Assembly: GCA_944393325.1 (NCBI GenBank)
Contig: CALXZU010000001.1
Span: 35,209-99,208 of the forward strand
Source: an uncultured Clostridia bacterium
GTDB lineage: Bacteria > Bacillota > Clostridia > TANB77 > CAG-508
Length of the DNA: 64,000 nt
Direction of reading: 5' to 3'
Translations under genes and position numbers: made by a program
Shown here: one piece after another, positions 4,984 through 29,940 of the stretch
Numbering within the stretch: position 1 is the stretch's first letter
Layout: each line of letters begins with the position of its first letter
The notes under the pieces: generated by a model
The model's input: only the letters and a program-made list of their open reading frames with translations
The model's database searches: none
What the model was told of the DNA's origin: nothing

Positions 4984-7110
4984 ATGGAAGAACGAAAACA
5001 GAAGATTTTAGATTTAATGAATGATGATGATTATGTCCCGATGAAGGCAAAAGAAATAGCAATGATAATGAGAGTACCTAAAAATGAATATCATGATTTT
5101 TTGGAAGTAATAGGGCAATTAGAATTAGAATTAAAAATTCAAAAAAATAGAAAAAATAGGTATAGAATTTGTGAAAAAACGTATTATGAAGGATATTATA
5201 GAAAAAATCAAAAAGGATTTGGATTTGTAAAATTAGAAGATAGAGAAGATGAAATATATATATCAAAAGAAAATTCACTAAATGCCTTAAATGGAGACCA
5301 TGTGTTAATAGAGATAACAGACGAAGCAAATAAGGTAAAAAGTGGAGAGGGAAAAATAGTAAAAATATTAAAACATGAGAAAAATACTATAGTAGGAATA
5401 TTTAAATATAATAAAAACTTTGGATTTGTAATACCAGATGATAAAAACTTCGGAACAGATATATTTATATCTAAAAAGAACTTTGGAAAAGCAAGAAACA
5501 ACCATAAAGTATTAGTAAAAATAATTAAATATCCTGAAAAAGGGAAAAAGGCAGAAGGAAAAATAATTGAAGTGTTGGGAAATGTGAATGAAGCGGGAGT
5601 TGATATGTTATCAATAATAAAAGAACATGACCTTCCTTCAAAATTTCCAGAGCAGGTTGTAGAAGAAGCAAAAAAATATGGTAGAAAAATAAATGAAAAA
5701 GATATAAAAAACAGAAGAGATTTTAGAGATAGGAATATATTTACAATAGATGGAGAAGATGCAAAAGATTTAGATGATGCAGTAAGAGTTGAAAAATTAG
5801 ATAATGGTAATTATAGTTTAGAAGTACATATTGCAGATGTAAGTAATTATGTAAGAGAAAATAGTTTATTAGATAGTGAAGCATTATTAAGAGGAACAAG
5901 TATATATATGTTAGGTAGAGTAATACCAATGCTTCCAAGAGAGTTATCAAACGGGATATGTAGTTTGAATCAAGGGGAGGATAGGCTTACATTATCATGT
6001 ATAATGGAAATAGATAATAATGGAAATGTTGTATCGTCTGATATTTGCAAAGGAGTTATATGTGTAAAAGAAAGAATGACATATACTGATGTTCAAAAAA
6101 TATTAGATGGTACAGATGAAAAAGTATTAGAAAAGTATGGAAAATATATACAAGAATTCAAATTAATGGAAGAACTTGCACATATTTTAAAGAAAAGAAG
6201 ATTAGAAAATGGATATTTAAATTTAGATATTCCAGAAACAAAAATAGAATTGGATATTAATGGAAAAGCAATAGGTGTTGGAAAATATGAAACAAGTTTT
6301 GCAAATGAAATAATAGAACAATTTATGCTTACTGCAAATGAAACAATTGCTGAAAAATTTTATTGGTTACAAGCACCATTTATATATCGTGTACATGAAG
6401 AACCCGATTTAGAAAGGGTAAAAGAATTAAATAAATTTTTATATAATTATGGGTTAAAAATAAAAGCATCTAAAGATAACATATATCCGAAAGAATTTGC
6501 AAAGATACTTGACGAAATAAAGGGAAAAGAGGAAGAAAGAGTAATATCAACATTAATATTAAGAACACTTAAACTAGCAAGATACGAACCAGAAAACAAA
6601 GGACATTTTGGAATAGCAAGTAAGTTCTATTGTCATTTTACATCACCAATTAGGAGATATCCGGATTTATTTATACATAGAGTAATTTCAAAATATTTAG
6701 AAAGTAACTATGTAATAGATGAAGAAGAATCTAATATATTAGAAAAACAAGCAGAGGATAGAAGTATCAAAGCATCTGAAAGAGAAAAAATAGCAACAGA
6801 AGTTGAAAGAGAAGCAACTAAAATGAAAATGGCAGAATATATGGAAAGTAAAATTGGAGAAGAATATGATGCTATTATATCTTCAATAACATCATTCGGA
6901 GTATTTGCAGAGTTGGAAAATACAGTAGAAGGTTTAATTAGATTTGAAAATTTAGGTGATGAATATTTTATATATGATGAAGAAAGGAAAATTTTAATTG
7001 GAGAAATTACAAATAAAACTTATAAAATAGGAGACAAAATAAGAATAAGAGTAATACGTGCAAGTAAAGAATTAAAAGAAATTGATTTTGAAATAATTTT
7101 TAAAAATTGA
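4984..7110 (+). CDS. rnr: ribonuclease R
   Basis: 708 aa. Has cold-shock-like N-terminal domains, an RNB core (FTIDGEDAKDLDDAV, HFGIASKFYCHFTSPIRRYPDL) and a C-terminal S1 domain. Confidence 0.95.
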   Translation: MEERKQKILDLMNDDDYVPMKAKEIAMIMRVPKNEYHDFLEVIGQLELELKIQKNRKNRYRICEKTYYEGYYRKNQKGFGFVKLEDREDEIYISKENSLNALNGDHVLIEITDEANKVKSGEGKIVKILKHEKNTIVGIFKYNKNFGFVIPDDKNFGTDIFISKKNFGKARNNHKVLVKIIKYPEKGKKAEGKIIEVLGNVNEAGVDMLSIIKEHDLPSKFPEQVVEEAKKYGRKINEKDIKNRRDFRDRNIFTIDGEDAKDLDDAVRVEKLDNGNYSLEVHIADVSNYVRENSLLDSEALLRGTSIYMLGRVIPMLPRELSNGICSLNQGEDRLTLSCIMEIDNNGNVVSSDICKGVICVKERMTYTDVQKILDGTDEKVLEKYGKYIQEFKLMEELAHILKKRRLENGYLNLDIPETKIELDINGKAIGVGKYETSFANEIIEQFMLTANETIAEKFYWLQAPFIYRVHEEPDLERVKELNKFLYNYGLKIKASKDNIYPKEFAKILDEIKGKEEERVISTLILRTLKLARYEPENKGHFGIASKFYCHFTSPIRRYPDLFIHRVISKYLESNYVIDEEESNILEKQAEDRSIKASEREKIATEVEREATKMKMAEYMESKIGEEYDAIISSITSFGVFAELENTVEGLIRFENLGDEYFIYDEERKILIGEITNKTYKIGDKIRIRVIRASKELKEIDFEIIFKN

Positions 7111-7135
7111 TTTTGTTAATTTGATGTTGTATAAT
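7107..7135 (+). promoter_or_regulatory. sigma-A-like promoter driving GC-rich island gene A
   Basis: TTGATT (7107-7112, overlapping the rnr stop), 17 nt, then TATAAT (7130-7135). The 13-mer gatgttgtataat is identical to the infC promoter at 31093-31105. Confidence 0.4.
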
Positions 7136-7227
7136 ATAAATGTATAGTGTAGTAACTATATATTTCCCTTTTTCCTATCTGACAAGATAGTTTACATATA
7201 TAATGGCTTGACAAGAAAGGAGTAGGA

Positions 7228-7446
7228 ATGACCATCGAGCAGTTGCAAGAAGAGATTTATCGCAATGTCGATAAAATCTTGGATTTGCAGGACATTGTCT
7301 TTGAGGAGCAAATTCCGCAGGAAGAGCGTAAAGGGCACTTTGGTGTGAATTGGCACGCCAAGGAGCAAATCGAGGATGCGAAGAAGCGAATCGAGGAGCT
7401 TGAATCCAGGAATCGTGAGCTCGATAATCAAATCAATTTCTGCTAG
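7228..7446 (+). CDS. orphan coiled-coil protein (72 aa) in GC-rich island 1
   Basis: AAAGGAG RBS. Codon usage (GAG, CAG, CTC, CGC, AAG) is unlike the host. It has its own terminator. No family recognised. Confidence 0.5.
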   Translation: MTIEQLQEEIYRNVDKILDLQDIVFEEQIPQEERKGHFGVNWHAKEQIEDAKKRIEELESRNRELDNQINFC

Positions 7447-7470
7447 CAACAAGGTCATAAAGAAAGGGAG

Positions 7471-7503
7471 GAGAGAAGGTAGAAATCGCCTTCTCTCTTT
7501 ATA
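7471..7503 (+). terminator. terminator after island gene A
   Basis: Stem gagagaagg / ccttctctc followed by a T-rich tail. Confidence 0.65.
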
Positions 7504-7646
7504 AAAAGTAAAATTTACATAAATTGACTTTTTAGTATAAAAAATGTTATAATATAGATGTATAGGGAGATTCCTTATACATCTTCCTTAATGCACCAAT
7601 TTTTGGTGTTATTCAAATATCGGTCGCAAGAGAAAGGATCAAAAAA

Positions 7647-7847
7647 ATGGAGAGAAAAAAACTTGTCGAAAGCAAGAACACTGTTGAGAGCGACCTTTGT
7701 CGCAGTAAGGAAATTCTTCGAGACGCCGATATTAGTTCCGACAAATATTCTGATGATTACATTAAAGCTGTAAAGAGCATTGTCGGTATTAGAGAGAATG
7801 TCCTTGCAAAGATTGAAAGTGAGATAGCGTCTCTTGATGCCGAGTAG
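7647..7847 (+). CDS. orphan protein (66 aa) in GC-rich island 1
   Basis: AAAGGA RBS. Preceded by a TTGACT-17-TATAAT promoter (about 7525-7553) and a 5' leader with two hairpins. GC-rich codon usage. Confidence 0.45.
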   Translation: MERKKLVESKNTVESDLCRSKEILRDADISSDKYSDDYIKAVKSIVGIRENVLAKIESEIASLDAE

Positions 7848-7903
7848 CAGGGAAGACAGGATATGGTAGAATTACCATGTCAAAATGACGAGGATGATTA
7901 GTT

Positions 7904-8107
7904 GTGAAAATTGTGAAGATGGACGAACTGCGAACGAGCCCTTTTAGAAGGGTATTAAGCAAGCTGTTACATCGCTATTCAGTGATTTTAACAAGCGGAG
8001 CTGAGGTCAAGTATGATGAAAAGACATGTAAGTTTTCTTCAAGTAGCTTGATTAACAGAGATGACCAAAAAGAACTCCTTGAGCTCATGGACATCTGGAA
8101 CATCTAA
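7904..8107 (+). CDS. orphan protein (67 aa) in GC-rich island 1
   Basis: GTG start behind GAGGA. GC-rich. Followed by the terminator at 8114-8150. Confidence 0.4.
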   Translation: MKIVKMDELRTSPFRRVLSKLLHRYSVILTSGAEVKYDEKTCKFSSSSLINRDDQKELLELMDIWNI

Positions 8108-8113
8108 TCATTT

Positions 8114-8150
8114 AAAGACTAGGTTGGAGTTTTGCTCTGGCCTAGTCTTT
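8114..8150 (+). terminator. hairpin closing GC-rich island 1
   Basis: 10-bp stem aaagactagg / cctagtcttt. Confidence 0.6.
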
Positions 8151-8201
8151 AAATTAAATAAGATATAAATAGTCAAGAGGAGTTAAGATAGCAAACAATG
8201 A

Positions 8202-8381
8202 TTATTTCAAAATAATTGTTGTTATAAAAAATATTACTACAAAGATGGAAAATATAATAACAGAAAAACCGCCTATTTTATTTTTTTGTTCTCTAATTTC
8301 ATAAATTCCATAACCAATAGTTTTTAATAAAATAAAAACACTAAATACAATAAATAAAAAATCATAAATAAAATTTTGCAA
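8202..8381 (-). CDS. small two-TM membrane protein (59 aa, tentative)
   Basis: Below the ORF-track cutoff. TTG start behind GAAGGTG, directly downstream of gerAC. Hydrophobic sequence FIYDFLFIVFSVFILL...FSVIIFSIFVVIFFITTIIL. Confidence 0.3.
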   Translation of the reverse strand: MQNFIYDFLFIVFSVFILLKTIGYGIYEIREQKNKIGGFSVIIFSIFVVIFFITTIILK

Positions 8382-8398
8382 AAAATCACCTTCTTATT

Positions 8399-9650
8399 TT
8401 AAGTTTCAGAAATTAACATAGCAGATTTTACAGAAGTGTCTATATTAACATCAAAAAAAGCATTTTTATAACATTCAGGCCAATCATAATTTTCAAAATC
8501 ATTAGTGGTTAAAAAGTTTTTAGAAGCAAAAATTCCAAAGCCATTAATATCAGACTTTAAGTTTTTAGAACTTTTATATAAATAATCTAAAAACATAGAT
8601 TCTAAATACTTATTACAAGAATTGGAAATTATATCTAAAATCTCAGATGATAGATATTCGGAATTATCAGTCATTGAGTAAATTTGAGCAGTAAAATTAC
8701 AATTGATTTTTATATAAGGTGAAGAATTAGAAGTATCAATTTGTACATTTGTAGAATTTTTAGGAGTTATATAAATATCTAAATATTTATTATCATCTAA
8801 AGGGTCAGGTATAGAGACTAAAAATCTATCAACTTTATTTCTAATACTTAAAAAAGCCATTGTTTCTAATGCAGTTAATTCACCAACTAATTTATCATAT
8901 TTAAAAACAGCAACACCAATGTTTTCAACCTTATTTTCACCTTCGACAGAAGAATCATTAGCTTTAATATTATAATCTTTCTGAGAATTATTATTAGTAT
9001 TGTCACCAAAATCAGATGTTTCTAAACTATTAGTATTTGAATTATCCTTATTAATACCACCGGAGAATTGCATAAGGTTCACAAGTATTGCAATTAAGGC
9101 TATTAAAAAAGTCACCAATAGTAGCATTAGGAATGTGACCTACGTATTTACTAGATTCAGCAAAAATTTCATAATATTTAGAAAGAATGTTTTCAATTTC
9201 AGGCTTGACTTGATTCATATAAAATTTTGCATTACACTTGCTAATAATAATATTTGCAGAAGGACGTATTTGTGTATCATTAATCAAAGTATAAATCTCA
9301 TCTGAAATTCCTCTATATGCAATTTCTTCTGAAAAAATAATAACTTTACAATGAGAAAGATTAAGTTGTCTTCCTTGATAACCATTTACTAAATTAATAG
9401 CATTACTAAGAGAAGAAGCAGTAACAGTATTAATTATAGGATTAGGCTTTTCATTTGCACTAGATTCAGCAGGAATTGGGTTAGAAAAATGAAAACTAAC
9501 TTCTAAATTATTATTATCTGAGCTATCTATACCTATTGCTAAAACATATGTTAAGTTATCAATATTAAGAGAAGAATAGGAACTGGAAAAAGCAGAGATG
9601 AAAACTAAAATTACTACAAAAATGAAAATATTTTTAAACCATTTATTCAT
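8399..9650 (-). CDS. gerAC: Ger(x)C-family spore germination protein, frameshifted as sequenced at CGG (plus 9062-9060)
   Basis: The N-terminal part (9051..9650) carries the YVLAIGIDSSD...LEVSF motif. The C-terminal part is ORF 8399..9127. Skipping the C joins ...CEPYAIL-G-GINKDNSNT. Confidence 0.8.
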
Positions 9651-27723: not shown

Positions 27724-29577
27724 TTACACTTCCATAATTATTGGTATTATCATTGGGTTTCTTTTTGTTTTTGCAAAAACATAATCTTTTAAATTATCTC
27801 TTACTGTTGATTTTATAGTTGCCCAGTCTCTAACACCTTTTTCTTCACATTTTTTAATTTCATGCCTTACAACTGATTTTACTTCTTCCATCAAATTTTC
27901 AGACTCTCTTACATATACAAAACCTCTTGATATAACATCTGGACCTGCAACAACTTCTCCTGTTCCTGAATCCATTGTTAGAACTATTATTATTAAGCCA
28001 TCTTGTGATAAATGTTGTCTATCTCTAAGTACGATATTTCCAACATCTCCAACACCTAGGCCATCTACTAAAACTCTACCATTTGGAACAATTCCAGTAA
28101 ATGCAGATCCTTCTTCATTAATTTCTAATATTTTACCATTTTGCATCATTATTATGTTTTCTTTTGGTATGCCCATACTTTGAGCGGTTTCACTATGAGC
28201 AATTAATTGCCTGTACTCACCATGCACTGGTATAAAATATTTTGGCTTTGCTAATGCTATTATTAATTTTTGTTCTTCTTGGCATGCATGTCCTGACACA
28301 TGTACATCTTCCAATGAGCTATACACAACTTCTGCACCTATTTGCATTAAATCGTCAATTACTTTAGATACATATTTTTCATTTCCAGGTATAGGAGTTG
28401 CTGAAATTATTATCAAATCATTAGGTGTAATTTTTACTTTTCTATGCTCTCCTGCGGCCATTCTTGTTAATGCTGACATTGTTTCTCCTTGACTTCCTGT
28501 TGTGATTATAACTAATTGTTCATCTGGATAATTTTTGATCATATCTATATCTATAAATAGATTTTCTGGACAATCAATATAACCTAATTCTCTTGCTGTT
28601 GTAATCATATTTATCATACTTCTACCACATACTGCAATCTTTCTTCCATATTTTATTGCACAATTTACTATTTGCTGTACTCTATGAACATTTGAAGCGA
28701 ATGTTGCAACAACTATTCTTTTGGTACAATGTAAAAATAATTTATCAAAAACATCTCCGACAGATTTTTCTGACATTGTAAATCCTTTTCTTTCACTATT
28801 GGTGCTATCAGACATCAAAGCTAAAATTCCTTCATGGCCTAGTTCAGCAATTCTACCTAAATCCATTAACTTTCCATCTATTGGCGTGAAATCTACTTTA
28901 AAGTCTCCGGTGTGCAAAATAGTTCCGGCAGGAGTAGTAATTCCAAGCATAACTGAATCTGGAATACTATGTGAGCTTCTTATAAATTCTACTTTAAAGT
29001 TTTTTCCTAAGTTGATAGTTTGACCTTGATTTACTTCTATCAATTTTGTAGAATTAACTAATTTGTGCTCTTCTAATTTATTTTTTATCAATCCTGCTGT
29101 TAATTTAGTAGCGTAAATTGGCACATTAATCTTTTTCAAAAAATATGGAATTGAGCCTATGTGATCTTCATGTCCGTGAGTTATAACAAGTCCTTTTATT
29201 TTATTTATATTTTGTTCCAAGTATGTAATATCAGGTATTACTAAATCAACTCCAAGCATATCATCTTCTGGAAAAGATAAGCCACAGTCTACTACTATCA
29301 TTTCATTTTCATATTCGAAAACAGTTATATTTTTTCCTATTTCATGTAAACCACCTAATGGTATAATTTTTAATTTTGGCGTTTTGAATATTTCTTTACT
29401 AATATTTCTGTTCTTTTTTTCTACTCTTGCAGTTCTTCTTGATGTTCTTGTTTCACCTTCTTTTTTCTCAATATTTTTTCTTTCTGTTTTTTTACTGTTT
29501 GTTTTTCTTATTTGTGAGCTTCCATTTTTCTTTCTCACATTTTTTTCTTTGTTTTTTTCTAATTTTTCTTCTGACAT
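27724..29577 (-). CDS. rnj: ribonuclease J
   Basis: Metallo-beta-lactamase HGHEDHIG, beta-CASP and C-terminal domains. Carries an unusual Lys/Arg-rich N-terminal extension of about 65 aa. Confidence 0.95.
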   Translation of the reverse strand: MSEEKLEKNKEKNVRKKNGSSQIRKTNSKKTERKNIEKKEGETRTSRRTARVEKKNRNISKEIFKTPKLKIIPLGGLHEIGKNITVFEYENEMIVVDCGLSFPEDDMLGVDLVIPDITYLEQNINKIKGLVITHGHEDHIGSIPYFLKKINVPIYATKLTAGLIKNKLEEHKLVNSTKLIEVNQGQTINLGKNFKVEFIRSSHSIPDSVMLGITTPAGTILHTGDFKVDFTPIDGKLMDLGRIAELGHEGILALMSDSTNSERKGFTMSEKSVGDVFDKLFLHCTKRIVVATFASNVHRVQQIVNCAIKYGRKIAVCGRSMINMITTARELGYIDCPENLFIDIDMIKNYPDEQLVIITTGSQGETMSALTRMAAGEHRKVKITPNDLIIISATPIPGNEKYVSKVIDDLMQIGAEVVYSSLEDVHVSGHACQEEQKLIIALAKPKYFIPVHGEYRQLIAHSETAQSMGIPKENIIMMQNGKILEINEEGSAFTGIVPNGRVLVDGLGVGDVGNIVLRDRQHLSQDGLIIIVLTMDSGTGEVVAGPDVISRGFVYVRESENLMEEVKSVVRHEIKKCEEKGVRDWATIKSTVRDNLKDYVFAKTKRNPMIIPIIMEV

Positions 29578-29940
29578 AAAATCTCCTTTCTATATATTAA
29601 ATTTTCAAATTTTATTAATTACTATAACCAGAAAAACTGGTACCTAAAAATTATGCATCGAAAAAATAAGTTTATAGAAAATAGTTTTTACCTATTTTAT
29701 AAACTCTATTTTTTATTTAGTTATCCGCTCTTTAAATAATTATTACCTAAATATATTTTTTGATACATATTTTAGGTTAAAACTTTAATAAAATCTCATA
29801 TTTTAGCTTTTTGTAGCTAACAATCGATTATTATTATACTATGTTTTATTCAAAATGTCAAATTTATTGCAATTTGACATAATATAGAAAAAATGATAAA
29901 ATATATCTGTAGTTGTACATTTATATTTAGGAGGTTTGAT

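Follow-up and report, generated by a model that had tools for sequence, protein, structure and literature searches.

A GC-rich island of small orphan genes behind rnr in an AT-rich gut Clostridia genome: a putative variable slot with two leader-bearing cassettes

The analysed window is a stretch of 64,000 nucleotides from an uncultured Clostridia bacterium (contig CALXZU010000001.1 of assembly GCA_944393325.1, positions 35,209 to 99,208; all coordinates below are those of the window). It has a G + C content of 27.4%, and sliding 200-nt segments average 0.274 with a standard deviation of 0.050. Directly behind rnr, the gene of RNase R, lies an island (7151–8150) in which these segments peak at a G + C content of 0.465, about 3.8 standard deviations above the mean; a single other region of the 64 kb, at 29.9–31.0 kb, has a comparable value. 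The island carries three small open reading frames (ORFs) in two transcription units and is bordered on its far side by m59, an ORF in convergent orientation. For comparison, the rnr protein was used as query and retrieved 80 sister-species loci with 72–91% identity, all from metagenome-assembled genomes of uncultured gut Clostridia and including Clostridium sp. CAG:343; L-numbers such as L026 or L106 denote sister-species loci or genomes. The features of the locus are the following.

4984–7110, plus strand: rnr (RNase R), left flank of the island; ORF with the Pfam RNB and S1 domains on identical proteins.
7066–7090 and 7091–7115, plus strand: imperfect 25-nt tandem duplication at the 3' end of rnr, from a repeat search.
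7085–7097, no strand: left arm of an inverted repeat (13 nt, perfect) around the island, with the right arm at 8201–8213, from a repeat search.
7107–7135, plus strand: unit 1 promoter, sigma-A-type TTGATT-17-TATAAT, from a promoter scan; kept in L019, L026, L030, L033, L034, L106 and L112.
7142–7227, plus strand: leader 1, from minimum free energy (MFE) folds and duplex energies, with a putative transcription start site; it consists of hairpin 1 (HP1, 7142–7161), a tract of C and U (CU tract, 7163–7175), hairpin 2 (HP2, 7175–7190) and the Shine-Dalgarno sequence (SD) GAAAGGAG (7215–7222).
7228–7446, plus strand: ORF1, 72 amino acids (aa), which falls into the GC-rich "type B" of its family, from the ORF call, the family profile and the ratio of nonsynonymous to synonymous substitution rates (dN/dS).
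7468–7500, plus strand: unit 1 terminator (−19.1 kcal/mol, z −4.1).
7524–7553, plus strand: unit 2 promoter, TTGACT-18-TATAAT plus an extended TG, from a promoter scan.
7557–7646, plus strand: leader 2, paralogous to leader 1, from folding (z −4.1), profile and alignment; it consists of HP1 (7557–7583), a CU tract (7583–7589), HP2 (7594–7608) and the SD GAGAAAGGA (7630–7638).
7647–7847, plus strand: ORF2, 66 aa, a fast-evolving orphan (ORF call; dN/dS 0.64).
7904–8107, plus strand: ORF3, 67 aa, with a GTG start and an AGGA SD (ORF call; dN/dS 0.13).
8110–8154, plus strand: unit 2 terminator, a long perfect hairpin (−28.8 kcal/mol, z −8.2).
8202–8381, minus strand: m59, a 59-aa membrane-like ORF, right flank of the island; among the 80 sister-species loci, tblastn detected it in 66, and it is present in the species' own contigs.

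The G + C excess is restricted to the coding sequences (ORF1 0.45, ORF2 0.40, ORF3 0.40), with promoters and leaders at a host-like 0.26 and the flanks at 0.24 (3' end of rnr) and 0.17 (m59). At third codon positions, the G + C content (GC3) is 0.60 in ORF1, 0.39 in ORF2 and 0.49 in ORF3, as compared with 0.13 ± 0.06 in host ORFs with 200 aa or more (n = 33), among which the ORF of the second GC-rich region is the sole outlier; rpmI, rplT and infC range from 0.07 to 0.18. The codon dialect departs from that of the host in all amino-acid families looked at: CGN codons make up 0.45–0.51 of the arginine codons (host 0.10) and CTN codons 0.67–0.78 of the leucine codons (host 0.25), ATA accounts for 0.05–0.10 of the isoleucine codons (host 0.53), GAG outnumbers GAA by 17 to 9, and AAG and CAG are favoured likewise. 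A preliminary description of this DNA, made from its letters, had placed the compositional jump exactly over the ORFs 7228–7446, 7647–7847 and 7904–8107 and had called their codon usage alien to the host. The G + C scan, the GC3 values and the preference for GAG, CGN and CTN with few ATA agree with this account, and all three pairs of ORF coordinates were correct.

The same description had left open a chimeric assembly, which is refuted by the recovery of the full 1.25-kb region with both junctions, at 99–100% identity, from more than 20 contigs of differing samples and assemblers, some of them apparently long-read assemblies going by their record names. Gene order is constant in these contigs (secG-rnr-island-59aa(-)-gerAC/AB/AA), and ORF1 and ORF2 correspond to two proteins on record that each occur in many metagenome assemblies. 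Sharp compositional boundaries such as those observed would suit misassembled foreign DNA on a host contig, or a structured non-coding RNA misread as ORFs. Apart from the repeated recovery of the junctions, this explanation is contradicted by the lack of any tRNA, tmRNA or Rfam family at the island, by substitutions that follow the pattern of coding sequences and by coding sequences without conserved RNA structure; it retains practically no probability and can be regarded as effectively refuted. An arrangement with smpB and tmRNA behind rnr is common in Firmicutes. As a candidate for this locus, tmRNA or another structured RNA was rejected on the basis of negative ARAGORN and Rfam results: neither tmRNA (ssrA) nor SmpB was found downstream of rnr, both programs detected no tmRNA in the whole 64 kb, and Rfam gave no gathering-level match in the window, with matches of chance level only (E up to 10) at 7050–8250.

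Each of the two units comprises a promoter, a structured leader and a terminator, as had been proposed, and the folding energies confirm both terminators. The unit 1 promoter overlaps the TGA of rnr (7108–7110) in the form first described. For unit 2 the two hexamers had been recognised correctly, whereas the spacer is 18 and not 17 nt long; an element, TTTACATAA, that is common to other units lies upstream of this promoter. The leader hairpin reported at 7175–7190 is present in unit 1 and is accompanied by the 5'-terminal hairpin at 7142–7161, which had gone unseen. Both hairpins reported for the unit 2 leader exist, but the cacca/tggtg stem is located at 7594–7608 instead of about 7603–7618.

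The two units share the −10 box and the initial transcript (TATAATATA-ATGTATAG-G), a combination with zero-mismatch matches nowhere else in the 64 kb, and in addition the first hairpin, the CU tract, the second hairpin and an AGAAAGGA SD. A profile of this leader cassette, searched with nhmmer against the window and against sister loci totalling about 1.6 Mb, matched at this locus only, and the canonical cassette always stood ahead of a GC-rich ORF1 or of ORF2 in these sequences; a pattern scan of metagenomes gave two chance matches. Compensatory changes were found in HP1 (TATAAGG/CCTTATA, TATAGT/ACTATA and TATAGC/GCTATA), and HP2 occurs in three different sequences among homologous leaders with its pairing kept. 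Pairing between the CU tract and the SD is possible in 10 of 10 canonical leaders, over 8–13 bp and with energies between −6.6 and −11.7 kcal/mol; most of the full-length MFE folds show HP2 enclosed by this CU:SD helix. The degenerate leader of L106 follows the same scheme of CU:SD helix and HP2, so that a conserved helix occluding the SD is predicted for the ten leaders and for this degenerate copy. From these folds we infer that the leader combines a 5' stabiliser hairpin with an SD-sequestering gate.

A dN/dS of 0.13–0.22 between orthologs indicates that ORF1 is protein-coding and under purifying selection. Its C-terminus is altered in the window by a 1-nt indel (7437–7446), resulting in 72 aa as compared with 77 aa in most strains, and an in-frame deletion of 57 nt shortens it to 58 aa in L018. 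A single-sequence search with ORF1 found just seven close clusters. With a profile made of eight diverse copies, the family could be extended to 74 clusters of 58–107 aa, mostly 77–81 aa, none of which bears a Pfam domain or a name, and an exhaustive HMMER search of 1.84 billion representatives detected about 10 ORF1-family clusters and nothing more distant. AlphaFold2, supplied with the family alignment, predicts with confidence an antiparallel helical hairpin (pLDDT, the model's per-residue confidence score, 93.7) with helices at residues 3–28 and 45–76 and a near-invariant Trp-His in the loop between them. Foldseek comparisons of this model with PDB and BFVD returned generic coiled-coil or helical hairpins only, at E values of at least 0.37. 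By these sequence and structure searches, ORF1 represents a new, lineage-restricted family of orphan proteins.

Two types of ORF1 were distinguished. Members of the AT-rich type (GC3 about 0.21) start 38–40 nt past the rnr stop, have no recognisable promoter of their own in the spacer and are probably co-transcribed with rnr; members of the GC-rich type, which includes ORF1 of the window, have a GC3 of 0.50–0.68 and their own promoter and leader. In L106 both occur in tandem: the AT-rich copy has a GC3 of 0.21 and a leader that is degenerate and itself AT-rich, and the GC-rich copy has a GC3 of 0.59. Every genomic context sampled, covering about 8 of the 74 clusters and both types, has the order rnr, ORF1, m59. 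Right behind the ORF1 stop (7447–7470), a purine-rich, SD-like AGAAAGGRAG runs into the purine-rich 5' arm of the unit 1 terminator; it is kept in both types (L019, L026, L027, L030, L033, L034, L106 and L112). Between the AT-rich copies of L027 (2721–2957) and L032 (12159–12395), the proportion of synonymous differences (pS) is 0.07 and that of nonsynonymous differences (pN) 0.10, with a pS of 0.25 in the adjoining rnr, a pattern that suggests recent allele exchange and/or positive selection. An antisense ORF of 88 aa (7192–7458, minus strand) that, in the codon-aligned frame, spans all of ORF1 was discarded as a gene candidate: its frame is broken in three of eight GC-rich alleles (L033, L034 and L106), and it stays open in the other five because the codons TTA, CTA and TCA are avoided, which makes it a by-product.

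The second unit encodes ORF2 and ORF3. The same three-gene layout was found in L026, with 35–37% identity for ORF2 and 55–57% for ORF3, depending on the alignment. In L030, an ORF3 homolog with 30% identity stands without ORF2 upstream of the local ORF1, under a different promoter and leader, and ORF3 homologs were detected in L026 and L030 only. They share the core V..EL..P..R...L.....VVLTSG.EV..D, and the low dN/dS indicates that ORF3 is coding and under purifying selection. In some strains (window 7845–7907) both in-frame TAG codons past ORF2 are CAG, which extends the protein to 86 aa and lets its TGA overlap the GTG start of ORF3 (GTGA). The ORF2 stop has an identical position in L026, and the 86-aa forms are therefore derived TAG-to-CAG read-throughs; the opposite view, in which the 66-aa form is a truncated 86-aa ancestor, was overturned by the same observation. 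ORF1 and ORF2 were also considered as paralogs on account of their common leader, and this was rejected with an hhalign probability of 0.6%. A resemblance of ORF3 to Phd/YefM-like antitoxins found no support, as the one marginal match concerned a 19-aa motif of PepSY-like periplasmic proteins (E about 0.007). The AlphaFold model of ORF3, computed from two sequences, is of low confidence and unusable (pLDDT 62.6). It is of alpha/beta type. The earlier statement that all three products are helical has been shown for ORF1 only. Searches of Pfam, PHROGs, NCBIfam and PADLOC (PADLOC-DB v2) gave nothing significant for ORF1, ORF2 or ORF3, in accordance with their first characterisation as orphans of no recognisable family.

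The convergent layout of rnr (plus strand) and m59 (minus strand) is kept across the clade, and the gap between them is mostly 10–150 nt in the 80 sister species. In L028 and L029, where rnr is 88% identical to that of the window, it measures 13–14 nt. At these empty sites (L028, 3930–3990; L029, 11505–11565) the final codons of rnr and m59 are complementary and fold together, in L028 into a hairpin of 23 bp (−28.4 kcal/mol, z −9.2) that, by its sequence, is a bidirectional terminator built from coding sequence. The 13-nt inverted repeat around the island probably is a remnant of such an ancestral terminator hairpin common to rnr and m59. Inverted repeat and shared hairpin together place the cargo in what would be the former loop of the bidirectional terminator. 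The second copy of the 25-nt duplication carries the rnr stop codon and the −35 box TTGATT of unit 1; this copy changes the C-terminus of RNase R to …EIDFEIIFKN followed by the stop, and the −35 regions of all cassettes (AAATTGAYTTT) are similar to the conserved rnr end GAAATTGATTTTGA. The preliminary description was right in that no integrase or transposase ORF occurs between 4 and 11 kb, but its statement that flanking repeats are missing does not hold in view of the duplication and the inverted repeat. These two are the sole repeats, and att-like repeats or a target-site duplication were not found.

In other sister species the slot contains different cargo. A ParE toxin module is located there in L096 and a FolC-like ligase in L042. 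The slot of L060 has an AAA_14/DUF4143 ATPase that matches PADLOC PDC-S01 (E 2e-156) and, beside it, a NUDIX protein that matches PDC-S07, and those of L032 and L109–L111 have an ORF6N protein that matches PDC-S05 (E 1e-120). In the latter loci (L032, 12550–13458; L109–L111, 5401–6300) an AT-rich ORF1 is followed by this ORF6N/KilA-N-type protein of 299–302 aa, and the two genes may form a unit. Matches to PADLOC PDC models were confined to slot cargo of other species. Conserved flanks with variable and often conflict-related cargo among relatives were thus found, and from this distribution the slot acts like a hotspot of the accessory or defence type that has no mobility genes. An accessory, conflict-type or regulatory role would agree with the further cargo of the slot, with the presence/absence polymorphism, with an allelic divergence that runs deep and with the predicted expression control, and our best guess is that the island products are small proteins of this kind whose translation would be gated. 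A toxin-antitoxin-like, anti-phage or regulatory function had been guessed before; the ParE module and the PADLOC candidates in sister slots lend it indirect support, but ORF1–ORF3 themselves match no toxin-antitoxin or defence model.

The G + C content of the coding sequences could be addressed by comparing the eight GC-rich ORF1 alleles. All of them have a GC3 of 0.50–0.68 and synonymous sites near saturation: pS is 0.66–0.88 in ORF1 where it is 0.25–0.36 in the adjoining rnr, pN is about 10-fold that of rnr, and the identity of ORF1 follows that of rnr only loosely (rho 0.36). Where two-fold codons encode a conserved amino acid, 35% of the comparisons show a different third base, and the G + C content of these sites is 0.65. 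In a neutral-decay model with the host value of about 0.115 as equilibrium, such divergence is reached only once GC3 has dropped to about 0.3; the observed 35% lies at the ceiling of the model (0.33–0.39, by starting G + C content), and 16 of 28 pairs exceed 0.34. Ordinary translational selection is an unlikely cause, as the third positions of ribosomal-protein genes are rich in A and T. Since GC3 persists across alleles whose synonymous sites have turned over, we favour, by exclusion, the view that the GC-rich dialect is a maintained property, upheld by selection on mRNA or codons or by a local bias that persistently acts on them, and that it does not reflect an un-ameliorated import.

A recent horizontal acquisition, in which the three genes or each species' GC-rich ORF1 allele came from a donor with about 45–50% G + C and have not yet ameliorated, would explain why the codon dialect as a whole looks like that of a genome with moderate G + C content (CGN about 0.5 for Arg, CTN 0.7–0.8 for Leu, ATA avoided), one found also in the unrelated ORF of the second GC-rich region, and why the genes are patchily distributed among close relatives with a divergence of ORF1 that is uncoupled from that of rnr. 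However, no donor was detected among 5.8 billion clusters and 1.84 billion representatives, and neither protein nor DNA searches of INPHARED (phages), PLSDB (plasmids) and IMG/VR yielded a donor or a match that would indicate a phage, plasmid or viral origin. The ORF1 family was found at a single chromosomal locus only, the promoters and leaders of the island have a host-like 26% G + C and are common to AT-rich relatives of the same family, an AT-rich paralog stands in tandem in L106, and the eight near-saturated alleles all retain a GC3 of 0.5–0.68. Of the features that characterise islands and mobile elements, atypical composition was thus observed, but mobility genes, att repeats and donor, phage or plasmid relatives were not. 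Recent acquisition, as proposed in the preliminary description, is therefore weakly supported and in our judgement unlikely. Host-like composition in relatives, which had been named as an observation that would speak against it, was found for the AT-rich members of the ORF1 family (GC3 about 0.21), with GC-rich alleles persisting beside them.

Three further explanations concern what the products do. A small toxin-antitoxin pair of type II, with ORF2 as fast-evolving upstream antitoxin, ORF3 as conserved downstream toxin and ORF1 as a separate regulator, is suggested by the two-gene operon with its unequal constraint (dN/dS 0.64 and 0.13), by the overlap of ORF2 stop and ORF3 GTG in the read-through strains and by the ParE module in the slot of L096. 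We consider it quite improbable: no toxin or antitoxin family was matched in Pfam, NCBIfam, PADLOC or PHROGs, the Phd/YefM lead failed, both proteins have just about 66 aa, and an ORF3 homolog alone under its own promoter, as in L030, would be surprising for a toxin. From its position, ORF1 suggests a link to RNase R, as its sampled family members all stand directly behind rnr and the AT-rich ones, 38–40 nt past the rnr stop with a promoterless spacer, are probably co-transcribed with it; ORF1 might then act with RNase R as its partner or modulate it, and expression would depend on RNase R activity because the mRNAs are GC-rich and structured and end in strong 3' hairpins. This is an argument from position alone, and it is rendered decidedly doubtful by the unrelated cargo that the slot also accepts, by the lack of ORF1 in most of the clade, including genomes with 88%-identical rnr, and by a literature search on rnr-linked small proteins that gave nothing comparable. 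Even less probable, to the point of being very unlikely indeed, is that ORF1 acts as a stand-alone, Gre-factor-like coiled coil that enters the secondary channel of RNA polymerase. PF03449 (GreA_GreB_N) was the top sub-threshold match for 49 of 72 members, end-to-end and with a best E value of 1.6e-4, and the modelled fold is an antiparallel coiled-coil hairpin, but all scores remained under the Pfam cut-off (18.6 bits for L027, with a gathering threshold of 24.5), the GC-rich members including ORF1 of the window do not match PF03449, the family profiles pulled no Gre factor out of the PDB sequences, one of the Foldseek comparisons yielded generic hairpins only, at E values of 0.79 and above, and spurious matches are common for coiled coils.

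The explanation preferred here, in which we have slightly better than even confidence, takes the island as the filled state of a variable slot that holds two leader-gated cassettes with a maintained GC-rich dialect. The slot would lie where the 3' ends of rnr and m59 face each other, in uncultured gut Clostridia that are very AT-rich and form a clade at genus level, and its present occupants would be two cassettes with paralogous expression signals, strong sigma-A-type promoters and strong terminators. In the leaders the 5'-terminal hairpin probably stabilises the mRNA, and pairing of CU tract and SD across the second hairpin is predicted to gate translation. Cassette 1 would deliver ORF1, a helical hairpin with an invariant Trp-His loop from a clade- and locus-confined family, and cassette 2 the orphan pair ORF2-ORF3; the GC-rich dialect, limited to the coding sequences, would have been held through synonymous turnover.

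Several points weigh against this explanation. The maintenance of GC3 by selection is a conclusion by exclusion, and two causes of maintenance that were tested failed: an overlapping antisense gene, being interrupted in 3 of 8 alleles, does not account for the codon bias, and neither does conserved mRNA structure in the coding sequences (z −1.98, with an unfavourable covariation term). Independent imports into this slot from an unsampled, GC-richer reservoir would explain the persistent GC3 as well. The occlusion of the SD is a thermodynamic prediction, and the CU:SD helix covaries little because both of its strands are conserved. Evidence that ORF2 is coding is weak, with a dN/dS of 0.64 and a single distant ortholog; none of the three proteins showed a homology that would point to a function, and the confinement of ORF1 to the slot is based on the small sampled share of its clusters given above.

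GC-rich islands in AT-rich genomes are habitually taken as recent horizontal transfer. Here alien codons and a patchy distribution coexist with evidence to the contrary, namely a family confined to one locus, AT-rich relatives including a tandem paralog, host-like regulatory DNA and a GC3 that survives synonymous turnover. If selection maintains the composition, the locus would offer a compact natural system for studying why cells keep genes in a separate codon dialect, with mRNA stability, translational gating and the evasion of AU-directed nucleases as possible reasons, and it would call for caution in composition-based calls of horizontal gene transfer. A bolder and, as it stands, rather improbable conjecture is that the synonymous sites of these locus-bound small proteins are actively kept at a GC3 of 0.5–0.7 amid a genome with 27% G + C and beside AT-rich paralogs, and that this, together with the SD-sequestering leader, constitutes an undescribed form of gating or insulation of conflict-type genes, possibly linked to RNase R. 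If true, it would imply selection at the codon or mRNA level, such as gating through rare codons or tRNAs, or a shielding of the mRNA against AU-directed RNases. New in any case are an orphan protein family with a confidently predicted fold, a structured leader and a putative terminator-loop slot that collects defence-type cargo, all in a lineage of abundant yet uncultured gut Clostridia.

The second GC-rich island of the window (29860–31000) contains a single ORF (29941–30903, plus strand) for an orphan of 320 aa with a G + C content of 0.44 and a GC3 of 0.44. It is located between RNase J (27724–29577, minus strand) and infC (from 31240), seemingly has its own promoter and terminator, as judged by eye, and was found in 43 contigs of the same species. 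Its codon dialect is the moderate-GC one of the first island, to which it is unrelated; no match was obtained in Pfam, NCBIfam or PADLOC, and no phage or IMG/VR relatives were found. Beyond m59, a GerAC-like germination lipoprotein is encoded by two overlapping ORFs (8399–9650, minus strand), one of 199 aa with the GerAC_N domain and one of 224–242 aa with the GerAC domain. All related contigs show the same split, which therefore is no assembly error; some of the dN/dS values calculated for gerAC are frame artefacts of gapped tblastn matches, and these were disregarded.

When compared with known systems, ORF1 resembles the N-terminal domain of GreA/GreB (PF03449) in its length and antiparallel coiled-coil hairpin shape, and this domain is the top sub-threshold match of its AT-rich subfamily, but ORF1 has no C-terminal globular domain as found in the Gre factors. 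With type II toxin-antitoxin operons, unit 2 has in common the small two-gene operon, the faster evolution of the upstream gene and a slot that elsewhere carries a ParE module; it differs in that no toxin or antitoxin domain was found and that ORF3 occurs without ORF2 in L030, contrary to the obligate pairing of such systems. SD-sequestering 5' leaders are known from riboregulators of translation such as RNA thermometers, and Firmicute mRNAs are known to carry stabilising hairpins at the 5' terminus. The leaders described here differ in that they match no Rfam family and in that the anti-SD helix surrounds a second, covarying hairpin, and they are alike in their hairpin at the putative +1 position and in the pairing of a pyrimidine tract with the SD in 10 of 10 cases. 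Hotspots of core genomes, finally, are variable slots between conserved genes that carry accessory, defence and toxin-antitoxin cargo, as in the pan-genomes of E. coli and Pseudomonas. Unlike these, the rnr/m59 slot has no integrase or mobile-element scaffold, its cargo would sit inside the loop of a shared terminator hairpin, the ORF1 family appears exclusive to it, and ORF1–ORF3 match no known defence or toxin-antitoxin model. It agrees with them in flanks, rnr and m59, that are conserved clade-wide, in being mostly empty and elsewhere filled with diverse cargo, and in the deep allelic divergence and presence/absence polymorphism of this cargo.

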